The notes beneath the pieces were generated by a model. It saw only the letters and a program-made list of their open reading frames with translations, did not search any database and was not told the DNA's origin. The position numbers and the translations under genes are program-made. A stretch of 62,425 nucleotides of DNA, filler included, from Collodictyon triciliatum (Eukaryota), in assembly GCA_043381765.1 (NCBI GenBank). It is 4 parts of 4 records of this genome, joined end to end, with 100 filler letters (N's around TTAATTAATTAA, not from the genome) between each part and the next. Parts side by side here need not be neighbours in the genome. Positions count along the whole stretch, not along the records: positions 44,548 to 56,581 come from JBHJMP010001285.1; 3 more parts are not named here. One strand, written 5' to 3'. This document shows positions 7,030-62,200 of this stretch, in pieces; position 1 is the stretch's first letter; every line of letters begins with the position of its first letter.

Positions 7030-7631
7030 TCAAGTCTCGAAGCGCGCTGGGTTTGCTTGGATTATACCGATAATCACTCCAAATAATCCGATTGCACTCC
7101 CGAAAATCTCCACAATCAGGATTCTCACAAACAAGTCTGGATTTTGTGCATCTGCCAAACTGCAAGCACTCCCTGTGATTCCAACACAAAGGCTGATGAC
7201 AGACAGAAGAGGTTGCACAGAAGAATGGAAACAATTAGGGATATTACATGCAAAATCTACATAAGGGTATAAGATGTCTAAATTATAACTCAAGAATAAT
7301 GCCAAATGAAAGAGACTTCTATCAATCGTCTTACCCGCAAAAAAAATTGGCTAATCCGACGGTAACTCCAGCCGCGAAGATAGAAAACCCAGAGAAGTAG
7401 TCTTTAGATGTGTATGGCTCGCTCACGGCCTCCAACTTTCCTGCAAGAATGATTGCCACGATAATCCCGTAAATGGCCACAGCCTCACAGAATATGACGC
7501 TGTGTTTTTGTTTGGGTATTCTTGCCGTCAGTACAAACAGATTCTTCGTCACTTTATGGGTGATTGATTGCGGGGATAGTGAATGAGCGATATCAGCTTT
7601 TTCACAGACAAAAAAAAAAAAAAAAAAAAAA

Positions 7632-7674
<43 letters not shown>

Positions 7675-7892
7675 ATATCTGAACATGTATGTGCTTCCTT
7701 TCAATTAGGTAAAAACATTTGCATGTCTGATTCCTCCTTGCATTTCTATGTAATATTTTTTTTATCGATACATATTTTTCATTTTTGAAAAGAAAAAAAT
7801 TACCAACCTGATGAGATTCTTTGACTGGATTCGAGGTGTGCGGATGCCTCCTCCTAGAATGCTTGGGCCACATAGAAATATACCCCTATGTA

Positions 7893-7948
<56 letters not shown>

Positions 7949-7964
7949 AGTGGTGATGATGGTG

Positions 7965-8034
<70 letters not shown>

Positions 8035-8271
8035 GAGGAAAGGGGAAAAACAGAAGAAAGCGCACATCGAAAGACTATTATCGAACAGAAGGAATAAAAA
8101 AAAAAAAAGGGAAGATCAGGACTGAAAGATCGCCAAGGGTAATATCTTCTGTTGTTTTCGCAAGTGTACGTACCAAGCGGCCCCAATGACTGAAAGGCCC
8201 ATGCAGATCCCTGTCCCAAGGGCTGCCCAGGTTGTCGGAGAACTTTCGTTCAGGAAAGAATCAAAGCCCAT
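7030..8271 (-). CDS. ATP6V0B: V-type H+-ATPase 21-kDa proteolipid subunit c'' (VMA16); 4 exons
   Basis: Exons: [33 protein letters not shown] / [25 protein letters not shown] / [18 protein letters not shown]...[12 protein letters not shown] / [43 protein letters not shown]. These are hallmark c'' motifs, including the [10 protein letters not shown] glutamate. Confidence 0.96.
7891..8033. repeat. compound (GAT)n/(AAT)n microsatellite in V-ATPase intron 1
   Basis: Read directly; source of the poly-D/N/S/L ORFs. Confidence 0.95.
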
Positions 8272-8638: not shown

Positions 8639-10734
8639 TCAATTAGATAGAGTTAAGAATATGCATGGGCAAGAAGAAAAGCAGCTGAACAGGCAATACG
8701 ACAAGCATTCGGCTATGCTGAAGCCAGGAGGCTCATACAACCAGCAGTAAATCGGTTTTGTATGAAGGGAAATTATGGGCGATGATTTTGATTGGGGCAC
8801 GAACCAGATTTTGCGATATGTTAAGGGCTTCAAGATTGGTAAGGAGAAGAAATGTTTCCGGCAGCTGGGAAATCTTCGTGTCGTACACACAATTAAAAAA
8901 AAAAACATAAATAAAATTGGTGATTGGATGCACTGATGAATTCATCAATATGATGACTTTGTATACGCGCCGCCCTGATTCAACAAACGTATCATTACCT
9001 TATTGTTCTGGAGAGCTAAGCGAGTAAGACCTTGTAATTTTGACATGCCCTCAGGAAGGGAAGATATCTACATTCAGGTATGACTGTCACAATATAATTT
9101 GCCTTATCGCACCAAGCGTTGTAATAGCCCACTCCCTATTGAATTGTATGGCATTTTGTATTCTTATAAATGAAACTATATAAAAAAATACATAATTGAA
9201 TGACAAGTCCAAGGCATCGATGGCTGGGAGCTGCAGGATAGAGTCGGAGATTTGATATAGCTATCAAAATAAGGATATTAACTGTTTTATAAATAGGAGG
9301 AATATGGATGTTGATAAGCGTTAGTGCAAGAGGGAAATATTGTAGGTAACTGCATTAAATGAGACAAAGCTATTGTGAAAAGTGGCGTAAATTTAAAACC
9401 TCGTTGTGCGAGAAACACAATTTTATTATGTTTGTCAGTATTGTAATGGAATCAGGTATTTCTGAAATCTAGTTGACCGCAGGTTTTCAAAGTAAAAAAC
9501 AATATCGTATATTCATCCAGATAACATGAAATTCATCAGCCCACTCCACTCACAAATAGTGAATCACTTATCATGTTAATAATCATAAAATCTATCTAAT
9601 GTCCAATTGAAAGAAAGAAGAAAATAATGATCAGTAAATACTCACCTTGTTGGAGGATATATCAATTTGTCGAAAATCTTTCATCAACCAAGAGTTAAGG
9701 TATGGTGTTATGTCTCGAATGTCTTTGTTTGTTTCAAAACAATCATATAAATCCAGCTCACGGAGTCGCCTATGGTCAATATTTCCTATTCCCCAACAAG
9801 ACAGATTGGATATCCCTTTATGAGCCCGGGTGACATTGACCAAGCCTTTACGTTCGATGTATAATACCTTTAAATTGGTCAGGTTTGTAATAGCCTCTGG
9901 GAGCATATCCATCTACACAAAGGGGCTTGGTTGTTATTTTCTCTGATAAAAAAAAGGACATATATTTTGACCAGAATGATTTCAAATATGAAAGAAAAAC
10001 TTTTTTTTTTTTGGTTTTCGTTTTTCGTTTTTCGTTTTTCGTTTTTCGTTTTTGGTTTTTGGTTTTTCGTTTTTCGTTTTTGGTTTTTGGTTTTTGGTTT
10101 TTCGTTTTTGGTTTTTCGTTTTTGGTTTTTCGTTTTTGGTTTTTCGTTTTTGGTTTTTCGTTTTTGGTTTTTGGTTTTTGGTTTTAATTCTATGATTGAG
10201 CATATTACAGGTCATCCAACTCATCAACCAACTCACAGGACATGACTGCAGACTAAGAAAGTAGAGGCTTTGCAAGGCAGACACCCAAGGAGGCAAAATC
10301 GATATGGGATTCAAGTACAGATTCAGTGTGTCCAACCGCGTCAGCTGAGACATGGAGTTGGGCAGCGTATCCAGCTTGTTTTCGTCCAAATACAGCTTTT
10401 CCAGGCAACTCAGCAAGCCAAGCCATTCAGGGAGGGTACTCAGCAAGTTTGAGTTGAGACGAAGAACTCGCAAGTTTGTCAACAGGGAAATCCCTTCGTG
10501 CATTACAAGCAAAGATTGGTGCTGGAGAACGAGTTTTGAGCAATGAAGCAGATCCCCGGCAGGACTGAACGACATTTTCACGAGCTCCTTCAATGAGGCG
10601 AGTTTGTCGCTTTCGCTTTGCGGCCCGGTTTCCTCGGTCTTTGACTCTGCGGCGGACTGTGGCGGAGTGCTTCTTTCCTCTCTCTCCAAGGGACTTTTGG
10701 AGTATGCTTTGCCAGACGACGTCGTGTTCCCCAT
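8639..10734 (-). CDS. Leucine-rich-repeat protein with an N-terminal myristoylation motif; last exon uncertain
   Basis: ATG at 10734 (MGNTTS...), then LxxLxLxxNxLxxLP repeats (LTNLRVLRLNSNLLSTLPEWLGLLSCLEKLYLDENKLDTLPNSM). Further exons at about 9647-9912, 9400-9468, 9192-9260, 8999-9067 and 8805-8873 each encode LRRs. Confidence 0.88.
9999..10185. repeat. (TTTTTCG/TTTTTGG)-type degenerate repeat in an LRR gene intron
   Basis: Read directly. Confidence 0.9.
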
Positions 10735-11039
10735 TTCTTTATTCTTTTTCCTCGATGGCGTGCGCGTGTTTGTTATTGTGCTACAGATATGACAGGTTCT
10801 TGTCTGGTGAGTGAATTGTCTCTGCTCAAGTTCTCGTTTTTTTGGGGGGTTTTTTAGTTTTTTGTTTGTTTTTTGGGGGGATTTGGGTTGTTTTTTGAGT
10901 TTTTTGTTTGTTTTTATTTGCGAAATTGTCAGCTTTTTTCTTCCTTTTGTTTTTCCTCCAAACGAAAAATGAAAGTTGAAAAGAGGGCAAAAAGATTCCA
11001 GAGAGAAGCAGCCACCCGGATGACAGACGACGCAGTTTC

Positions 11040-14000
11040 TTACGGATTCAGTTTCTTCCATGTCACAATCTATGGTAGGATTAGTTAGCGGTTGCTTGTC
11101 TATCATTCTGCTGGTAGGAGAGAATGTTTGGATGCAGCGAGAACCATACTGACTGGATTGATTGTCTGCCTATTTATTTATTTTTTATGATAAAGTATAT
11201 ATGTTTATGAATGGTGCGAATCTTTTGTTGTATACCTGTTTCAGGACATGCGCAAGAACATGCTTTGCTGAACTGCCTCCTGAAACCTTTGGGTTGATGC
11301 CCACAATCTCTCCACACTCACGGATATAATATTCCAAATCCTCGTCGTTGCCTATCGATAACCAGAACACCATGAGACAAACACTCGAAACACGTGGTAT
11401 TGAGTATCCCCATTGCGATTGGATACGAAGAAAAGGAGTCATGAGTCCAATAAAGAAAAATGAATGAATGAATGAATGAATGAATGAAAATCGCTATGCA
11501 TCATTAAATGCAGTAGAGTGAACCCATGGTTTACATTTGTTTGTCAACTGGGCTAGTCGAACTTGTTCAGAGGCAAAGTGCTCGTCGAGGTCGAAGAGAT
11601 CAAGTGCGGGCGGTGGTAATTCCCGCAGAGTTGGGGGAAACACTGCCGGCAAAAGCGGGGGGAGTGGCGTTTCAAACTAGTTTGTGGGAAAAGGGATGCC
11701 ATATGCTTCAATTAAAAAAATGCTTGGTTTCTATGACAGAGTAATTGCTGCTTGTATATCGGTGATTTTGAACGTTTATTATGATATTGGATTCTGAAAC
11801 TAACCCCATTCCGGGGTAAAAGAAATATAAATTAAGATAAAATGGGCTTCGTCATTATGAATTACTTGAGGAGGGATGAGAGCCAGTGTCTCGTGCTTCA
11901 CTCCCAATTCCTGTAATAGTAGAAATTATCTTTTAGTATCGGCTTTATTTTTTTTTTAAAAAAAAAAAAAACTTTGGCAATTCCACTCCAAAAATTTATG
12001 ATGTGCGTATATGCAACAGTTTTTATAAGTAAAAGGGGCAATAATATCGATAATACACCTCTATTAGAGGTTCTGATATTTAAAAGGCTCCGGATAGGAA
12101 GCTTAATATTGTTTTTGTTTCTAAAAAAAAAAAATTATTTCATTCGGAATGTCACTTACCGTATAAATCTTTAGTACTTCTGGGATTAGGCTAGTGTCGA
12201 ATTTGAATGGCGTGTCATCAAAAAGGGACATAAAATCTTTCGGAATTTCTTCACTTTCCTGGACACATATTTGTTCATTCAAATTGGTTAGAAAAAAAAA
12301 AGCAATAAACACATATATACATGGTTTCTTGGCGTTAGTATTTTCATTAATGTATAGAACCCCTTCTGTTATTTTGTTTAGGCTCTTAAAAAAAAACTAA
12401 CGGTTATGAGACACTATGTAAATGTGGTATTTGCAATAGTGATTTATTCACCTGAAGACAGCTACGGACTCTGGAAGAGAGTGCCTCAGTATCTGGAACA
12501 AATGTGTAGTCCGATATTTCTGGTGCATCGGCTAAGGGTATTCGATTGTAAGATGTAAGGTATTTGTATGGAGATAGTGGCAACATGTTGATATGAAGTA
12601 AATACGTCTGTAGTATTTCACTACTCATTCTACTTGGGTGAGCAGGACATGCCTTCGAATTATCAATGAGAAAAATGTTTTGTAAAAAGGGAAAAATTAA
12701 TCACCGTCTATGGAATCAAGGTTAAAGTCTTCGGCAGCAAGAAGCCACTTAAATATAATTTCTTGGAGAATAGAATTTTCTTCCTTTTCGAACCATTCAT
12801 CATCGAACATTCTAACTGAACCCAAAACAGCTAGCCTTCCTTTCTTGTTCTAAGGTTTAATGATACGTCAATGTTATTGATGTATCACGAAGGGTTAACA
12901 GCATTATTGTATGTACTTTTGAATGTTTCAAATTGAAAAAAATATAGACATGAAGTAGACATGTAGAGAAGCGAGCTGGAGCAAACCTTTGATACATAAA
13001 CACCACCGACTGGCCTATTAAGAGGATATGCAATATGCCCTGAGGAGAGTATTGGAATGGCAGGCTTCTGTACATTCAGAGTTGCCCCATATGGATAAAC
13101 GAACGTGAGTCCAGTTCTGTTGGTGTTTTGTGCAATTGTGCAAACAAATTAGTTTTCCATTTGAAGTTTTGTGATAAACATGTTCATTAGAGATGTATAT
13201 TTACTATGTCATGAACATGTAATTAATCTCATATCAGATTGAGTTAAAAAGGAGGGAAAAAATACGCAACGTTCGACGATTCTTTCCTTGCGTTGTGTCT
13301 ATCCTGTTTGCCGGCTGCTCTGTTGATGTTGCGGTTGAGAATTCCGTTTGTAATACAGACTTCCTGCGTTGCAGCATATTAATAGTGAAATGAAAGCTAA
13401 AAAGAAGAAGAGACGCATATAAATGTATGCAATAGCATATAGCGCTGTAAGTATACAGAACTACATAAACAAAGTCACAGCATCAGCTTCAGAGTTTCGT
13501 GGGGAATTCAAGACCTTGGGGTGGAAGTATTTGTAGAATACTGTCCGAACGACGCAGTCTGTATTTACTGATATTCCAAATTCTTCAAGCAAATAATTGA
13601 TATTGGTTCCATATTGGCCTTCTCCTCCCTCTCCCAGCATAACCAGAACACTTCCACCTTCATCCATGTATTTTTTGATTTGCTCAAACTAAATATATTT
13701 ATGTCAGAAATAACCAAAAATGATTAATTTCTCTTCTCAAAAAAAAAAAAAACACCAATTATAATGAGTGTTACGTTTTCTTTTCTAGAGGAAAAGATAT
13801 GTGATTCAGACAAAGATAGAAATAAATGTGCGAATACTCAAGAAAAAATACCTCAGCTGTGGTAAAACGCTCACGGGGGCCTCCGAGGATGAAAAGGCGC
13901 GCCTGCTTCAGAACGTCAACTGATATTTCCTCCTTGTTTCTAACATAGGTGATGAACCGGAAGTAGGAGACGGTTAAAAGAAGAATAAATATCTTGCTAG

Positions 14001-29500: not shown

Positions 29501-31382
29501 AGCTTTCCAATCTCATTGGTTATGCTCAAGGTATCAAAGAATCTATGTCTGCATTATCCAGAGGTATATTCACACTTTTAATCGAATAAAGGAAAAAATC
29601 CAGAGGTTTGTATATATCAATTATATGTATTCTAGGCTACTTCTCCATTTTAACTTTTCTATTGTTTCCCAAAATAGAACCACCGACAAAAATTGCAAGT
29701 GATTTTCTAAAGCTGCTGAACAGCAATAAATTTTGTGATATTTTTTTTATTCACAAGACAGGTATTGACTCTATTATATGCATTAAAAATCTATAAATAA
29801 ATCTATATATTTTCCATTACAATACATTATATGATGTATTGATCTTGAACATTATTATGAATAAAGGCGGACACCATAAAATCGGAGCTCATCGCAGTAT
29901 ACTTGGATGTAGAAGTCCTTACATGCTCCACATAATCAAAGATACAAAGCCCGGGGATATCGTATCTTGGGAATTGTGTGATTTAAAACTGTTAAACATC
30001 ATACTTCAATACATTTACACTGGTCGGGTTATTGATTATGAGCAAGAAAGAAAAGATGAATTACAATTCATTGCCGATAAAATGGGGCTTCTACACTTAA
30101 AATGGATTCTGGAGTCATCGTTTTCTCTCGATATGAATATTAGTGACTTACCAAATTTTATTAGTGATAGCTTATCGAATGATTGTACAAAATTATTCAG
30201 ATTTATATTAAAGTCTTTGGATGAGGACTTCATGGATGATGGGCTTGATTTGGATGGCTCTATGGAAAATTTCGAGTCAATAACTTTGTATTCTGCTTTC
30301 TATGATCTTGTTATACACGTCGAAGGAAAAGTTATACCTTGCCATAGAGGAATTCTATCTGCCAGGAGTTGGTTCTTTCAACGATTACTTGGTATTGGGA
30401 TGTCGGAATCTCTGTCTTTAGGGGGTGAGTTACTCTTTCGTATGATGAGAGTGCATTTAAATTAATTTTTTTATTCTTCCTTTCAATTTTGTGCAGAGTG
30501 CATTTAAATTATATCATACCTAGAAGCATATGTATCACCGGTGGATATATTTTAATAAATCATTTTCAATACTTTACAGAAGAAAGATATGAGGTTCATC
30601 TTTCAGATGTTAGCTACAAATCTACCCTAGCAATGGTGAAGTTTTTATACACTGGGACGTTGGATGCTGATGGTAGTAATATTATGGAGGTCTTGGTCAT
30701 CTCAGATAGGTACCAATTACCGCGTATGAAAAGGGCTGCAGAAGTAGTCATATCAACACACTTGGACACCGAAAATGCGATTCATGTTTTGGCATCGGCA
30801 GATGCATATAATGCCGGGTTCATTTGAATAATAAATCAATAATATATTATGACATATTTGCAACACTTTATCATTAAAATATAGATAATATTATAAGAAT
30901 AGCTATCTGACTTGCAATAATGAGTAATTTGAAAAACATACTAAAGAATTTTAATAAACCATATTACAGTTGGCTGATCCGAAAGGCTGTGAAATACATT
31001 TTAAATAATTATGTATCATTAAGAAAACATAGTGGATGGGACTCACTAAATGAGAATCTGAGGTTATTCTGAACAGATTTCTAGATGTACATTTGCTTCA
31101 ATTTAATGGCATCTAAGTCTTTTAAGAAGCTTTTAATTATTTTTCTATTAGTTTTTTTGGTTTATTTGTTTTAAAGTCAAAGTCGTAAAATTCATGGCAA
31201 TATATAATTACAATAGAGATCATATTGACGAATGCTACCAACATTCACTCCACCGTACGACTGCTATCTCTCCGCATATAATACCTGAATCTTCAGAGAC
31301 CAGGAGTTCGTTGTTGCAGACAAGGAGGCCATCGCTCCGTTCTCTTCTGAGCACTGGAAAAAGGATACTTGGTTTCAGCTAA
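26543..31382 (+). CDS. TPR-repeat plus tandem BTB/POZ domain protein; multi-exon
   Basis: TPR-like exons: ESRIFNCLGIAEYNLGNY, EAAMMANVGLVEERIG, ACQNMGYVHSLLGNIREANKFF. BTB1: DFLKLLNSNKFCDIFF..IGAHRSILGCRSPY..ILQYIYTG. BTB2: YDLVIHVEGKVIPCHRGILSARSWFFQRLL..MVKFLYTG..DRYQLPRMK..ENAIHVLASADAYNA. Confidence 0.88.
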
Positions 31383-45018: not shown

Positions 45019-45636
45019 AACCATGCACTTTCTCTCTGAACTAAAAGCAAATGTGAGTTCCTTGCTCTTGTTAGTGGTGCCTGGGCAGGTGTGGCGTTTG
45101 TGATATGACCTTTGCTTATTTATTTGTTTGTTTATTTGTTTGTTTATTTTTTGTTTACTTTATGTTTATTTTTGTTTGCTTTATGTTTAAAGGACTAGGC
45201 ACCCAGTAAAATGACTGGATGTGGAAACGGGTTTGATTCATTTATTTGCTTGATAGAGGATGGATAACAAGGAGTCAGTTTATGTATGTGAATTCTCTGA
45301 GGGAGAAGTAAATGGTGAGGCCTATGAACTTTTTTATGTGACCCTGGTTCATCTCGACAAGGGCTCGAGTCATTTGGTGGCCATATTGACGAAATAATTT
45401 ATATGTAATGCTTGGAGATGTAGACACCGACTGCTGCGAAGATGTTCATGTTCGGATGATGATTAATATGGTATCTTTCTTAGTGGTGATTCTTCCCGAG
45501 GATTACCTAATATTCGAGAATCGAAAAGAAAGAGAAAACAAAACATGAGTGGGACCTGGATGGATTGCACACGAATCCCATTACGATTGTTTTCGCTGTC
45601 TTTCTTCCCCCAATTATTTTCTCTTCTTTTTGCTTT

Positions 45637-45735
45637 TGTTTGTTTGTTTGTTTGTTTGTTTGTTTGTTTGTTTGTTTGTTTGTTTGTTTGTTTGTTTGTT
45701 TGTTTGTTTGTTTGTTTGTTTGTTTGTTTGTTTGT
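45637..45735. repeat. (TTTG)n microsatellite
   Basis: Read directly. Confidence 0.95.
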
Positions 45736-45763
45736 TTTTACCGAACCATGCAAATGGTTCCCT

Positions 45764-47227
45764 TCAGGCAAGGGTGGGCCGAACACCAACCGGACGTGGC
45801 GAATCTACAGATGAGGCTGACTTGAATCTAGAGACAGAAACAGCCCCAAAGAACCGGGAATTAGGAAGATGAATCCAGCGACACCAGCGAGAGGATTGGA
45901 GCGGAGCGGGCGGTAGAATGCGGGCGACGGAGATTAGTGTGCGGCACAGCAGACAGACACATGACAGGTGAGGGAGAGGGGATTCAGGGACGCACCGGCG
46001 GGGCGGGCGGGCGGAGAGAGGGGGTGGGCCGGAGGGCCTTTGTGGCGCGGGGCGGCGGCGTGTGTGCGTCCACGGCCCATGCCTGCAGACGGGTGCGCGT
46101 GCCGCGGGTGAGTATTGGCGAGACAGAGGGGGCGACTGGACGCACCAGCCACACAGCACGGCGCGGTGTGACATGGCATGACGTGGCAACAGAACAGAAG
46201 AGAAGAGAAGAGAAGAGGGACGCACGGCGGCGACGCAGCACAATGGCGTGGGAGTAGGCGTAGAAGGGGCGCGTGAGGGCCGTGGCGAGCGGGGCGTCGC
46301 TGTTGCTGTCGCTGTGCGGGGTGCGGTGCAGGGCGAGGCGCAGGCAGAAGAGTCGCTCGCGGTGCTTTGCAGATGCCTCGCACAGCGTCAGCCCCGCCAC
46401 CACGCACGCCCCGCCCACCACCGCCCACGCCCCGGGACCCCCCAGGATCCGCCCGCCCCCGGGCACCGCCTCCGCCGCGCCCTCCGCACCCGCGTACAGC
46501 AGCTCCGCCCGCACCCACAGCCCCCCGCCGGCGGCTGCTCCTGTGGCTGCTCCTGTGGCTGCCGGGCCCGACACAGACACCTGCACGCTGAACGACCTGC
46601 AGGCGGCCGGGGTTAGGATCAAGAGCGCAACCGGATGCTGGAGCGGAGCGGGGCGGGGTCCTACCGGATCTCCTGCGGCGTCCGCGTCCGCACCTCGCAC
46701 GGCGGCTGCACGTCGATGGTGAGCCGGAACGGCGTCGACGAATCCGGGTCTGTTGAATCCGGGTCTGTTGAATCCGAGTCTGTTGAATCCGAGTCTGTTG
46801 AATCCGAGTCTGTTGAATCCGAGTCTGAGGAGTCCGAGTCCGAGGAGTCCGGCAGCAGGGCGAGGGGCTCCGGCGGGGCGTCGCGCAGCAGGGCGCAGAG
46901 GGCCGGGTGCGGGCGCAGCAGGGCGGCGAGCGGGGGCGTGGGCAGGGCGGGCCAGGCGGCGGCGCGGCGGGCCACACAGCGGGCGACGGCGGCGGCGTTG
47001 AGGGCTGCAAAGCGCCGCACAGACGGCCCCGCCCCGCACCGGGCCACCACGCCGCCCGCCAGCCGCTCCGCCTTGCCCAGCTCTGCCGCCACGCGCCCCT
47101 CAAACAGCTGCCCCCCGCCCCACCGCCCCGCCTCCGCCACACGCCGCAGCCCCGCGTAGTCCACGTAGAACCCCGCCCACCCCGCCTGCGCCTGCGCCTC
47201 CCGCCCCAGCTGCCGTCCGAACCCCAT
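45764..47227 (-). CDS. SPX-domain protein fused to a putative Velvet/Rel/CBP60-like DNA-binding domain; 4 exons
   Basis: Exon 1 (47227-46665): MGFGRQL..WAGFYVDYAGLRR..FEGRVAAELGKAERL..VRRFAALNAAAVARCVARR (SPX pattern), a (DSDST)n linker, then FRLTIDVQPPCEVRTRTPQEIR. Exon 2 (46596-46226): SFSVQVSV..LWVRAELLYA..ILGG..LTLCEASAKHRERLFCLRL..TRPFYAYSHAIVLRRR. Exon 3 at 46082-45996; last exon uncertain. Confidence 0.72.
46737..46850. repeat. 15-bp coding tandem repeat (GAATCCGAGTCTGTT)n encoding an acidic (DSDST)n linker
   Basis: About 5 near-perfect units plus degenerate copies, read directly. Confidence 0.9.
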
Positions 47228-47489
47228 CCGCTCCCGCCCTTCCTGCCTGGATCGGCTCTGTCTGTCGTCCCTTTCTCCCTCTCTTTCTCCCGCTCTTTCT
47301 CCCTCCTGGCCTCTGCCGTCTGTGCCTGCCTTCCGTGGCTTCGTGGCGTCCGGTGGAATGCTTTTCCCTTGGTTGGTTGCTGTGTCTCGCCATGCCTTGC
47401 ATGATATCCGCCCGCTTCCGCTTCCGATTCCGCTTCCGGACATCGTATTCCGCATGTGGCTAGTGCACTCAACCAGCCAATGTAATGCG

Positions 47490-48118
47490 CTACCACAATT
47501 GGTATTGCCGCTTCTGGTGATTATCGGCTTTGCATCTTGTTTTTCCCTTTCGTGGAATTTTTGTGGAGCGATTAATTTACCTTTTGCTCTGTGTCAAAGT
47601 CAGCCAGGTGGTTGTGGATGTGTTTGATTTTATTCTCGATCGCACAGCTGGTCATGTCGGCGTTAGTGCAGTTTTCTTTGGGATTTGTCTGCAACTGGCT
47701 CGTCTGTGCCGAAGGAGTTGCCCAACCTAGCGAGTGTTTTCGTTAGCCAGCTAGCGTATTGGAATCCCTTGCATCGACATGTATTCGTATGTGTTGGACG
47801 TGAAGGGGGAGAGTGGCTAGGACAGCCTCAGGGCTTGCAATTGGTTGTGTCGGGATAGGAATCAGAAGTAGTTGTAAGTCATCAGGTATTTGTTTTCAGA
47901 CAGGGATAACTGTGATATATCTCATCCTTTCATATCCCGACACGGGAATAGCACTAGAGTTGCGTGGCTTGTGTCGTTCACTAACCTCTCTTCAAGACGG
48001 GCCAGGCGCTGGTGATTTCCTGTGCTGAATCCTGCTGTCCGTGTGTGTCGAGACGTCTCCCGAGTGAATTGTTGTGCCTGTTGTCGTTGCCAGTGCTGCG
48101 CATAACCGTGGACTGCAT
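47490..48118 (-). CDS. Possible small 3-exon hypothetical protein (about 100 aa)
   Basis: Phase-compatible GT-AG model MQSTVMRS...WPVLKR/GWATPSAQ...HNHLADFDTEQK/KRQYQLW*; no homology recognised. Confidence 0.3.
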
Positions 48119-59229: not shown

Positions 59230-62200
59230 ATGGGAGCGTCGTGTGGTACGTCAAGAAAGCGGCTTGTTCCTGTGGAAGACGACCCTGACTCTATGGCTTT
59301 TCGGGTGAGATGCTCGCGAGAATCCAACAAGGTTTGCTCTTATTTGAACAGTTGCATTTTTTTTCTCTTGACAAAACAAAACACAACAAAACAAAAGAAA
59401 ACAAAAGAAAACAAAAGAAAACAAAAGAAAACAAAAGAAAACAAAAGAAAACATTAGAAAATACAACAAAACACAACAAAACACAACAAAACACAACAAA
59501 ACACAACAAAACACAACAAAACACAACAAAACACAACAAAACACAACAAAACACAACAAAACACAACAAAACACAAGAAATCAAAAGAAATCAAAAGAAA
59601 TCAAAAGAAAACAAAAGAAAACAAAAGAAAACACAAAAAACACAAAAAACACAAAAAACACAAGAAAACACAAGAAAACACAAGAAAACACAAGAAAACG
59701 CAAGAAAACAAAGGAAAACAAAGGAAAACATCAGAAAACACAACATAACACAACAAAACACAACAAAACAAAAGAAAACAAAACAAAAGAAAACAAAACA
59801 AAACACAAGAAATCAAAAGAAATCAAAAGAAAACAAAAGAAATCAAAAGAAAACAAAAGAAAACAAAAGAAAACAAAAGAAAACAAAAGAAAACAAAAGA
59901 AAATAAAAGAAAACAAAGGAAAACAAAGGAAAACAAAGGAAAACAAAAGAAAACAAAAGAAAACAAAAGAAAACAAAAGAAAACAAAAGAAAACAAAAGA
60001 AAACAAAAGAAAACACAAGAAAACATTAGAAAACATTAGAAAACATTAGAAAACATTAGAAAACATTAGAAAACATTAGAAAACATTAGAAAATACAAGA
60101 AAACAAAAGAAAACACAAGAAAACACAAGAAAACACAAGAAAACACAAGAAATCAAAAGAAAACACAAAAAACACAAAAAACACAAAAAAACACAAAAAA
60201 ACACAAAAAAACACAAAAAAACACAAAAAAACACAAAAAAACACCAAAAAAGGAAAACAATTGGACTCTTAAAAGTTTGAATATGTCTCCTATCCATTCA
60301 CACTTGCAACAGTTTCTTAATTGAATCATGAAAAGTCTGCTACAAATGATTTCTTATCCTTTTTTTTATTTTTAGCTAGATGCACATGGAGAATCATTGA
60401 CAGAATATCCGAAAGAGTTTATGGATGCCAGTCATTTGCGAATACTAAACCTTGGAGCAAACAAACTTTCTACACTTCCTTCTATTGTATCAGTACTTGT
60501 AAATCTGGAGGATTTTCAAGTAAAAAGAAAAACAGCATCTATGTTTAGCACCCTTTTCTTTTGTAAACATGTATAAAGTTCTCGTATCTTCAAATCCTTA
60601 TGAAATCGGTGGTGAACAATCTGTATACTTGTGACTCCCTTAATTCAAATTCTTCTTCCATTAAATATATGCCTCGTGTGTTACATAAATATCTCTAGTA
60701 TTGATTTATGCAAATACTTCCATCAGTTGTTTGACAACGATTTGGAGCAGCTTCCATCCCAGATATCATCCTTGACGTCGATAAGAATCCTGAATATCAG
60801 CAACAATTCTCTCAGCTATATACCTAGAGAAATCGGCTGTTTAACATTACTCGCAGAACTGCTGCTGTGGGGAAATAACTTGGACTCACTACCTGATGAA
60901 ATAGGAAACGTCTGTAACATAACCTTACTTGATGGTTCGTACAATAGACTTAGCAGCCTACCTGCCACGCTTGGCCAGCTTTTAAAACTGAAGGCAATTG
61001 CGTTATATCGATTTGATATGATATGTTTTGTATTTTGACTCATGTTCCAAACATTTATGTTTCTTTGCTCAGAAGGTTCATCATTTTAAGGAAACTGTCT
61101 TAATTTAGCTTTCGTAGTAGATTTATGTGAAAGTTATATTCTAAGAAATCTATGCACAAATGTAGGATGTCAAGTTTTCTGGGAATCGCCTGACCTCTTT
61201 ACCAGCCTCTGTAGAAACTCTGACTTCCTTACTTTCAGCAGATTTTTCTCACAATCACCTGCATTCTATCTGTGCAGGTATATCTGCTTGGTCTAATGCT
61301 ATGAAACTAAATTTCAGAAGGAACAGAATCAGTTTTCTTCCTGATGAATTTGAGGGTTTATCTCACCTGGCTGAGTTGAATATCCAAAACAATCAAATAT
61401 CAAGCCTACCTGTGTCTATCTGCAAATTGCCCATCATAAAGCGTCTCATATTCACAGATAATAAGGTACTATCTCAATTTCGTGCTAAATTAGAGGCACT
61501 TTTTTTTTTTTTTTTTACTCTTCGAATAGCCACCGAACCACATGGAAACTTTAATATTTTAAACTGACCCTTTGTATGGACACCTTTTCTATATATTCCC
61601 TCATCCCCACCTAGGAACACATCGAATCACTATATTCATTCATTTAGTTGACAGCTCTTCCCGATGAAATGTCGAACATGAAAACGCTGAATATGCTTCT
61701 TGTTGACGAAAACCCCCTTGAGCATCTTCCAGACGGACTTTTTAACATAACTAGCTTGGCCTCTATTCAAGTATCAAGCCATAGGCTCAAGGTGTTGCCT
61801 TCTTCACTTCCATCATCGAAGAATATTTATATTCTCTCAGTTGTCGATGGAACTTTAGGTAGCATATTCTTTTAGATGCATATAAATGGTCACGTGAACC
61901 CGAGCATAATTCAAATTTACCAATGTCCTCTTCAAAAAACAACAACATGGGATAATGTATTTTGTGCTTTTAGAAAGCATGCCAGACACATTCTCATCAC
62001 CAATGAACAGACTGTGTAAAATCGACTTGTCAAAAAACCAGCTTACAAGTATATCTTCTCCCTTGGATGGATTGTTTAACATACAGGTGTGCAAGGACCT
62101 AGTCATGAAAAACAAAACTCTTGTATGCTGATATGTCTATAAAAAAAAAAAACGTGTCACCTACAATCATCTTATCAACCAAATTATCGTAGGACCTCAA

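Follow-up and report, generated by a model that had tools for sequence, protein, structure and literature searches.

SPX domains are the eukaryotic receptors of inositol pyrophosphates, and the known ones either govern transporters or enzymes or, like SPX1-4 with PHR, act in trans as inhibitors of transcription factors. The available part of one study describes how SPX bound to an inositol pyrophosphate controls a transcription factor, plant SPX1 inhibiting the MYB-CC factor PHR in trans (PMC7810988). The accessible portion of a survey of domain architectures lists stand-alone SPX, SPX-EXS, SPX-MFS, SPX-RING, SPX-VTC, SPX-CitMHS and SPX-Na_sulph_symp proteins, together with EIN3-SPX, Kelch-SPX and others in Selaginella (bioRxiv 10.1101/2021.08.24.457498), and an excerpted account of dinoflagellates gives SPX, SPX-EXS, SPX-VTC and SPX-other (PMC12388464). 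Here we describe a locus on the minus strand, at positions 45764..47227 of a window of 62,425 nucleotides (nt), the whole stretch of DNA analysed, from the eukaryote Collodictyon triciliatum (GenBank assembly GCA_043381765.1; the part concerned comes from JBHJMP010001285.1). An earlier note had read this locus as an SPX domain fused to a Velvet/Rel/CBP60-like DNA-binding domain, a candidate one-component phosphate-sensing transcription factor.

Our best explanation, which we advance tentatively, is an orphan gene of at least two exons that joins an SPX-like head, an acidic linker, a beta domain of the DG1062_N / CSL RHR-N / CBP60 type and an Arg-rich tail. Such a minus-strand gene would start at the ATG at 47227 and encode a product of about 350 amino acids (aa), with a guanine plus cytosine (GC) content at third codon positions (GC3) of about 0.9 inside DNA of 35% GC. 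Its four parts would be a short, degenerate, SPX-like helical head of some 95-116 aa, which carries four core motifs in SPX order and in which lysines are mostly exchanged for arginine or alanine; a flexible acidic (SDSTD)n linker of variable copy number; a beta-strand domain of about 150 aa that extends across intron 1; and an arginine-rich tail. The architecture of an SPX-like head joined to a beta domain resembling DNA-binding domains is plausible and unproven, and we infer its function only, as we do SPX ancestry, the binding of DNA and of a ligand, and any link to phosphate.

Coding signal, gene model and relatives

Since the minus strand carries 10 stop triplets in 1587 nt and all three of its frames are open (over 310-528 codons), open frames are no evidence of coding at this locus. 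The signal comes instead from composition by codon position. Codons 1-125 have GC contents at first, second and third positions (GC1/GC2/GC3) of 0.86/0.63/0.94, and the 123 codons of exon 2 have 0.76/0.63/0.87; in both cases the spread was equalled in none of 5000 shuffles. Exon 1 as a whole gives 0.75/0.61/0.87, with periodicity borderline in its acidic repeat part (shuffle fraction 0.09). No periodicity was found in intron 1 (0.29), intron 2 (0.93), the leader (0.88; GC by position 0.61/0.60/0.65), putative exon 3 (0.71) or the downstream sequence (0.54). The exons contain short tandem repeats with periods of 12, 15 and 21 nt, which could contribute to the periodicity signal but are shorter than the periodic stretches of 125 and 123 codons. 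We regard the locus as very probably a real gene in which exons 1 and 2 are spliced together in the proposed way.

All strings quoted in the earlier note were recovered in the minus-strand translation of the locus. The frame from the ATG at 47227 holds MGFGRQL, YVDYAGLRR, AELGKA, RRFAALNAAAV, an acidic Ser/Asp/Thr run and FRLTIDVQPP, and the frame at 46596-46226 holds LWVRAELLYA, ILGG, LTLCEASAKHRERLFCLRL, TRPFYAYS and RRRR. Both introns that had been claimed are bounded by GT..AG, and exon 1 leads into exon 2 in the claimed frame. Coding exon 1 (46665..47227, minus strand, as are all features of the gene; 563 nt) has 188 codons, the last of them split by the donor, and is preceded by a putative 5' leader (47228..47400) that is purine-rich on the coding strand and has about 60-65% GC. 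Three segments can be distinguished in this exon: the SPX-like helical region (46943..47227; residues 1 to about 95), with the start, YVDYAGLRR, F..AELGK and F..LN motifs in SPX order; the acidic Ser/Asp/Thr linker (46733..46852; residues 126-165), mostly a 15-nt tandem repeat of variable copy number; and a tail (46665..46732; residues 166-188, FRLTIDVQPP...) predicted to supply the first strand or strands of the C-terminal domain. Intron 1 (46597..46664) is 68 nt long, has about 70% GC and carries a CTAAC branch-like sequence some 20 nt before its acceptor. Coding exon 2 (46226..46596) encodes the beta-rich domain and has RRRR at its end. It is followed by a putative intron 2 (46083..46225; 143 nt, GTGCGT..CAG), which contains a TACTCAC branch-like site.

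The 3' end of the gene is model-dependent. The span had been claimed to end at 45764, but the two-intron frame stops instead at 45936-45934 (360 aa), and the stop at 45766-45764 requires a third intron. The splice model thus decides whether the stop is at 45936-45934, 45807-45805 or 45766-45764; a donor GTGCGTCC at 45995 used with acceptors near 45828 or 45805 would yield 347 or 353 aa. Within 230 nt the coding strand has three copies of GTGCGTCC, at 46225 (the intron-2 donor), 46145 and 45995, and those at 46145 and 45995 may be alternative or further donors. The 3' part (45764..46082) would accordingly comprise a short Pro/Arg/Ala-rich putative exon 3, a possible further intron and the 3' untranslated region (UTR), all without periodicity. 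Of nine sequencing runs listed in a search with the sequence, none contained half or more of its words (shares 0.00-0.11), and none of them is recorded as RNA.

Homologue searches, which covered 5.8 billion clusters and 1.84 billion representatives, found a single true relative, a 178-aa 'hypothetical protein' (JGI/NCBI; here P0004) encoded on a 938-nt contig. It is identical to exon 1 of the window except that it has two linker units (10 residues) fewer, in frame, and it is a second copy or allele of that exon. This only database model also begins with MGFGRQL; it is annotated as a single exon and ends at a TAG overlapping the intron-1 donor, exactly where the frame ends when intron 1 is left unspliced. 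P0004 is alone in its own cluster, and the 188-aa version of the window is absent from the protein collection. A word-indexed search with exon 1 returned 10 matches at an expect value (E) of at most 1, with P0004 the only true relative among those examined; of the nine others, the four examined (P0005-P0008) match the SDSTD repeat only, and P0009-P0013 have E values of 0.019-0.95. An exhaustive HMMER search with the same exon gave six matches at E <= 0.001, namely P0004 and five that fall on query residues 86-176, the repeat region. All database matches other than P0004 whose positions were examined fall on the linker repeat (46740-46840; period 15, 6.7 copies, 95% matches according to Tandem Repeats Finder), the SDSTD unit of which differs in copy number between the gene of the window and P0004. 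The top row for exon 1 in the Protein Data Bank (PDB), I-kappa-B-beta (E 0.0003), was rejected as a Pro/Leu-rich and acidic low-complexity match with no homology. For exon 2, none of 8000 candidates was a relative at E <= 1 (lengths 204-650) and none of 1364 at E <= 10 (lengths 67-216). Pattern matches in metagenome contigs (593 and 599) and in viral contigs (154 and 19) were in no case confirmed. The gene is an orphan, with no detectable relative other than its own allele in the searches made.

The SPX-like head and the beta-rich C-terminal part

The claim of an SPX N-terminus stood in part: the start signature is in register with a solved SPX domain and the nearest Atlas neighbours are SPX clusters, whereas the Pfam SPX scan was blank and the ligand positions are only partly kept. 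Residues 1-34 align to residues 1-32 of 5ijj_A, the SPX domain of Gde1 from Chaetomium thermophilum, both beginning at Met1 (phmmer against the PDB, E 0.57; the same match has E 1.5 when the whole of exon 1 is the query), with 13 identities and 8 conservative positions. The signature M.FG[KR].L ... W..Y..Y..L[KR][KR], an SPX start consensus taken in part from the earlier note, fits residues 1-29. The start motif and, separately, W..Y..Y..L[KR][KR] each appeared in 0 of 200,000 composition-preserving shuffles, and when the window is translated in all six frames each is found a single time, in both cases at the N-terminus of this gene; F..EL.K and F..LN, which follow in SPX order, were matched in 219 and 5 of 200,000 shuffles.

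Other methods give weak signs in the same direction. The top three clusters in the ESM Atlas are SPX, with scores of 0.82, 0.82 and 0.81 (SPX on 15%, 93% and 87% of members), scores below 0.9 being leads only, and all 10 of the best family-bearing matches share the SPX family or clan. The AlphaFold2 (AF2) single-sequence model of the head is all-helical, with helices at 3-20, 24-37, 39-64, 68-90, 100-104 and 108-116 and a predicted local distance difference test (pLDDT) score of 66, and Foldseek ranked 5ijj_A first, but only at E 1.4 and a template modelling score of 0.25. In AtSPX1, according to the available part of the account, the phosphate-binding cluster is formed by Y25, K29 and K139 and a lysine surface cluster by K136, K140 and K143 (PMC7810988). 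In the alignment with 5ijj_A the Tyr of the phosphate-binding cluster is retained as Tyr24 and its first Lys is replaced by Arg28; in helix 4, aligned manually, Arg83 and Arg87/88 are basic and Ala86 and Ala90 are not. Residues 1-125 contain 30 Ala, 16 Gly, 15 Arg and 1 Lys. This make-up follows the GC-rich composition and would by itself erode matches to lysine-rich SPX profiles. An accidental resemblance to SPX is unlikely, and the head probably derives from an SPX domain.

The LAG1-DNAbind, CBP60 and Velvet families share a beta-sandwich DNA-binding fold, and the C-terminal half had been assigned to this Velvet/RHD/CBP60-like class. Here too the claim held in part, since a beta-rich domain is predicted and Atlas neighbours of the named class were found, while Pfam and PDB gave no sequence match. 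Exon 2 reaches an Atlas score of 0.90 (180, 185 and 175 of 256 shared features) with clusters from haptophytes and oomycetes. Two of the nearest clusters carry DG1062_N (PF28397) on 54% and 60% of their members, the next families are LAG1-DNAbind (0.84) and Calmodulin_bind, the CBP60 family (0.78), and 8 of the 10 best family-bearing matches share a family or clan. Note that the Pfam library was scanned without PF28397 (DG1062_N), so the blank Pfam scan is silent on this family, and that all sequence queries with exon 2 ran without the first strand, which is encoded in exon 1. The AF2 model of exon 2 has strands at 26-36, 63-74 and 81-91 with a pLDDT of 43, a confidence at which it speaks neither for nor against a p53/RHD-like sandwich, and none of the stand-alone C-terminal models showed a confident fold.

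The two sides of intron 1 fold together in prediction. When the exon-1 tail (residues 153-188) was co-folded with exon 2 in ESMFold2, the interaction prediction score from aligned errors (ipSAE) was 0.63 (median of three runs), a level that was attained in 51 of 78 solved complexes and in 2 of 108 mismatched pairs, and the three controls gave 0.00-0.01 (best 0.01). The runs share at least 78% of contacts, with a partner pLDDT of at least 61. The predicted interface takes in tail residues 166-183, of which 168-173 form pairs with residues 5-8 of exon 2 (expected error about 1 Å), and the pLDDT of exon 2 was 73-74 with its true tail versus 59-61 with unrelated partners. We read the co-folding of tail and exon 2 as support for the claimed splice model and for one beta domain across intron 1; it is no evidence of DNA binding. 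We lean slightly towards placing this domain in the DG1062_N / p53-like class.

A number of results weigh against this composite reading of the gene. The SPX family (PF03105) that had been expected was not found, none of five query versions having a Pfam match at E <= 10, an outcome that the earlier note itself had named as speaking against its reading; the SPX model (gathering score 27.8 bits) was unmatched by exon 1 (188 aa), by residues 1-100 and by residues 1-125, and the protein is therefore not filed as an SPX family member. The motif patterns are post hoc, and that of F..LN was loosened to fit. About four of six ligand-contacting SPX positions are still Tyr or basic in the manual alignment. 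Neither exon 2 nor its read-through version matched any Pfam family at E <= 10 (no Velvet, RHD, LAG1 or CBP60), and in the PDB sequence search the read-through had no match and exon 2 had one irrelevant match (E 4.1). Atlas scores, including the 0.90 of exon 2, are uncalibrated for protein parts, and the exon-2 matches may partly mirror an Ala/Gly-rich composition that is common to haptophyte proteins; the calibration of the ipSAE of 0.63 does not extend to peptides or predicted chains. A function for DG1062_N could not be taken from the literature, in which no paper on the family was found among the matches listed, all of them about instruments. Finally, this is one orphan locus whose family matches all fall short of statistical significance, and no homologue was found among protein clusters, metagenome contigs or viral contigs that would show conservation.

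The GC-rich island and its surroundings

The DNA of the window, which is eukaryotic, has a GC content of about 35% and contains numerous microsatellites and assembly gaps. Binned by 2 kb, this content is 0.26-0.45 throughout, with the exception of bin 46001-48000 (0.65). Bins of 100 nt delimit an island from about 45,800 to about 47,400, with a peak of 0.87 GC and a CpG observed/expected ratio of about 1, and 300-nt windows of at least 0.52 GC form one continuous run (45,701-47,301), with seven scattered windows elsewhere. Exons, introns and leader lie together at 60-87% GC. Since introns and leader are GC-rich too, the whole transcription unit is GC-shifted. The GC3 of the gene is 0.87-0.94 versus 0.31-0.51 in all 10 neighbouring ORF (open reading frame) segments, and the introns of neighbouring genes are AT-rich, with ends GTGAGT..TTACAG. 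The shift could be explained either by transfer from one eukaryote to another or by local GC-biased gene conversion, and as an unusually clean single-gene GC shift the locus is useful for setting one process against the other. No transposon-like terminal repeats were found flanking the island, and the island had no match to plasmid DNA.

Other features of the window can be described briefly. A perfect (TTTG)x26 microsatellite (45635-45737) lies directly past the 3' end of the gene, at the left edge of the island. On the other side, a C/D-box small nucleolar RNA (snoRNA; 47855-47935, minus strand) scores 47.9 bits with Rfam snoR38 (gathering score 45) and sits about 450-600 nt upstream of the gene leader on the same strand; its terminal stem pairs 47847-47861 with 47929-47943 (fold z-score -5.0, equalled by 0 of 200 shuffles). 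The window contains no tRNA. Neighbouring ORFs encode leucine-rich repeat (LRR) and BTB proteins, together with a weak match to the V-ATPase c subunit. The last of these is an exon at 7331-7600 (minus strand) that resembles the V-ATPase/ATP-synthase c subunit (PF00137, E 0.0018, under the cut-off) and adjoins long homopolymer-codon runs at 7754-8249. A gene with two BTB domains (29797-30827, plus strand; Pfam BTB, E 1.8e-15 and 2e-9) has an AT-rich intron near 30430-30580. Long minisatellite-like open frames rich in Lys, Thr, Asn and Gln (9848-10245 and 59289-60049; units KTKNQKRK... and NTTKHNKTQQ...) adjoin LRR-protein exons at 10300-11169 (minus strand) and 60616-61567 (plus strand).

Proposed mechanism, rival explanations and comparison with known systems

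If the parts of the protein act as their likenesses suggest, the most likely mechanism would be that of a nuclear regulator in which a basic face of the head (Tyr24, Arg28/29 and Arg71/72/83/87/88) would sense a polyanion, InsP6 (inositol hexakisphosphate) or an inositol pyrophosphate. Ligand binding would then alter how the beta domain and the basic tail engage DNA or a partner, and the acidic linker could serve as an intramolecular competitor.

The full reading as a one-component phosphate-sensing transcription factor is, in our judgement, improbable. We grade just as low its specific form, a phosphate- or inositol-pyrophosphate-gated factor built from a minimal arginine-based SPX, a phospho-acidic linker and a beta-sandwich of the DG1062_N/CSL/CBP60 type, in which the GC3 of about 0.9 would have been driven by transfer or biased gene conversion.

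Three other explanations have to be weighed against the tentative composite reading. It is possible, if on the unlikely side, that the locus is a real orphan gene whose fast-evolving or new Ala/Gly/Arg-rich protein only mimics SPX and DNA-binding domains and has another function or none. The failure to find any homologue besides its own allele in so large a collection, the blank Pfam scans with every family signal below threshold, and the extreme composition of the first 125 residues all speak for such mimicry. Against it stand the four SPX motifs, correctly ordered from Met1, with a start motif that no shuffle reproduced; the agreement of three different methods that rank SPX first or nearly first; and the Atlas list of exon 2, which independently includes CBP60 and the RHD-like LAG1, both named beforehand in the earlier note. 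Quite unlikely, in turn, is a foreign or decaying copy that is no longer expressed or functional, whether a 1.6-kb GC-rich unit transferred from a GC-rich eukaryote or an old SPX-family gene eroded by GC-biased conversion. The GC3 of the gene far above that of its neighbours, GC-rich introns and leader unlike the AT-rich introns of the host, Arg or Ala in place of Lys at SPX positions, and a protein collection that has only the allele on the 938-nt contig and not the copy of the window would all fit this origin. However, the frame is intact over both exons and strongly periodic, a signal that decay would blur, the only difference between the two copies or alleles is an in-frame change in the repeat, and a donor lineage turned up in no search. 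Origin and present function are in any case separate questions, so that a transferred or GC-shifted gene may still work.

The locus might also be no gene at all, but a GC-rich non-coding island (a CpG-island-like promoter or a repeat) with frames open by chance. The three long open minus-strand frames and few stop triplets, the several tandem repeats of period 12-21 nt and the CpG ratio near 1 are what such an island would show. This is very unlikely given the phase-consistent order GC3 > GC1 > GC2 over 125 + 123 codons, unmatched by any shuffle; a periodicity that ends exactly at the proposed introns and UTRs; the co-folding across the splice junction, with controls close to zero; and an annotation pipeline that chose the same start.

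Were the composite gene to work as the one-component reading has it, a sensor and a DNA-binding module in one chain would link phosphate status to transcription by the shortest route possible and supply a compact part for synthetic phosphate-controlled switches. It would also show the minimum size and lysine content of a working SPX domain and provide a first functional context for the uncharacterised DG1062_N family.

The earlier note did not recognise the architecture as characterised, and this judgement has to be narrowed. EIN3-SPX and SPX-RING-BET fusions are listed for Selaginella and algae, from domain scans only and uncharacterised, in the available part of the survey (bioRxiv 10.1101/2021.08.24.457498). 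Given EIN3-SPX, which joins a DNA-binding domain with SPX in Selaginella, SPX with a transcription-factor domain is not wholly without precedent; on the other side, no fusion of SPX with a beta-sandwich domain of this class was found in the literature searched, where supplementary tables of SPX surveys (e.g., Table S1 of an algae-to-legumes paper) may list more. Among the literature matches listed, none describes by title or abstract start an SPX fused to a DNA-binding domain, and none from the CBP60 beta-sandwich literature since 2018 touches this architecture. Searches that paired SPX with CudA or velvet returned unrelated papers only, that of CudA with CBP60 returned none, and that for SPX domain architecture in phytoplankton was empty.

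Compared with these systems, the head shares with SPX domains (PF03105; Gde1 SPX 5IJJ, plant SPX1-4) its extreme N-terminal position, a predicted all-helical structure, a start motif in register, F..EL.K followed by F..LN, and Tyr24 and Arg28 at the Tyr and first basic positions of the phosphate-binding cluster. It differs in being about 95-116 aa long versus the 340 positions of the Pfam model, in falling under every significance threshold, and in having Arg or Ala for Lys, with some two of four helix-4 basic positions left in the manual alignment. The beta-rich part has its nearest Atlas neighbours, of similar length (108-181 aa), in the DG1062_N (PF28397) clusters of haptophytes and oomycetes, a likeness seen only in the Atlas feature score; no sequence-level match to exon 2 was found. 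In the order of its beta strands, and in the motif pattern noted earlier, it resembles CSL LAG1-DNAbind (PF09271), CBP60 (PF07887) and Velvet; the putative domain is, however, shorter (about 150 aa) than typical RHD or p53 domains, and it has no Pfam or PDB sequence match and no confident fold. Like EIN3-SPX and SPX-RING-BET, as far as the available part of the survey describes them, the protein would hold SPX and a transcription-regulator domain in one chain, but in EIN3-SPX a clear Pfam SPX lies C-terminal to EIN3, whereas in the present protein a sub-threshold SPX-like part stands at the N-terminus and its partner is a different, beta-rich domain. Finally, the proposed logic is that of SPX1-PHR, from which the protein would differ in that the MYB-CC domain is absent and sensor and effector are combined in one chain.

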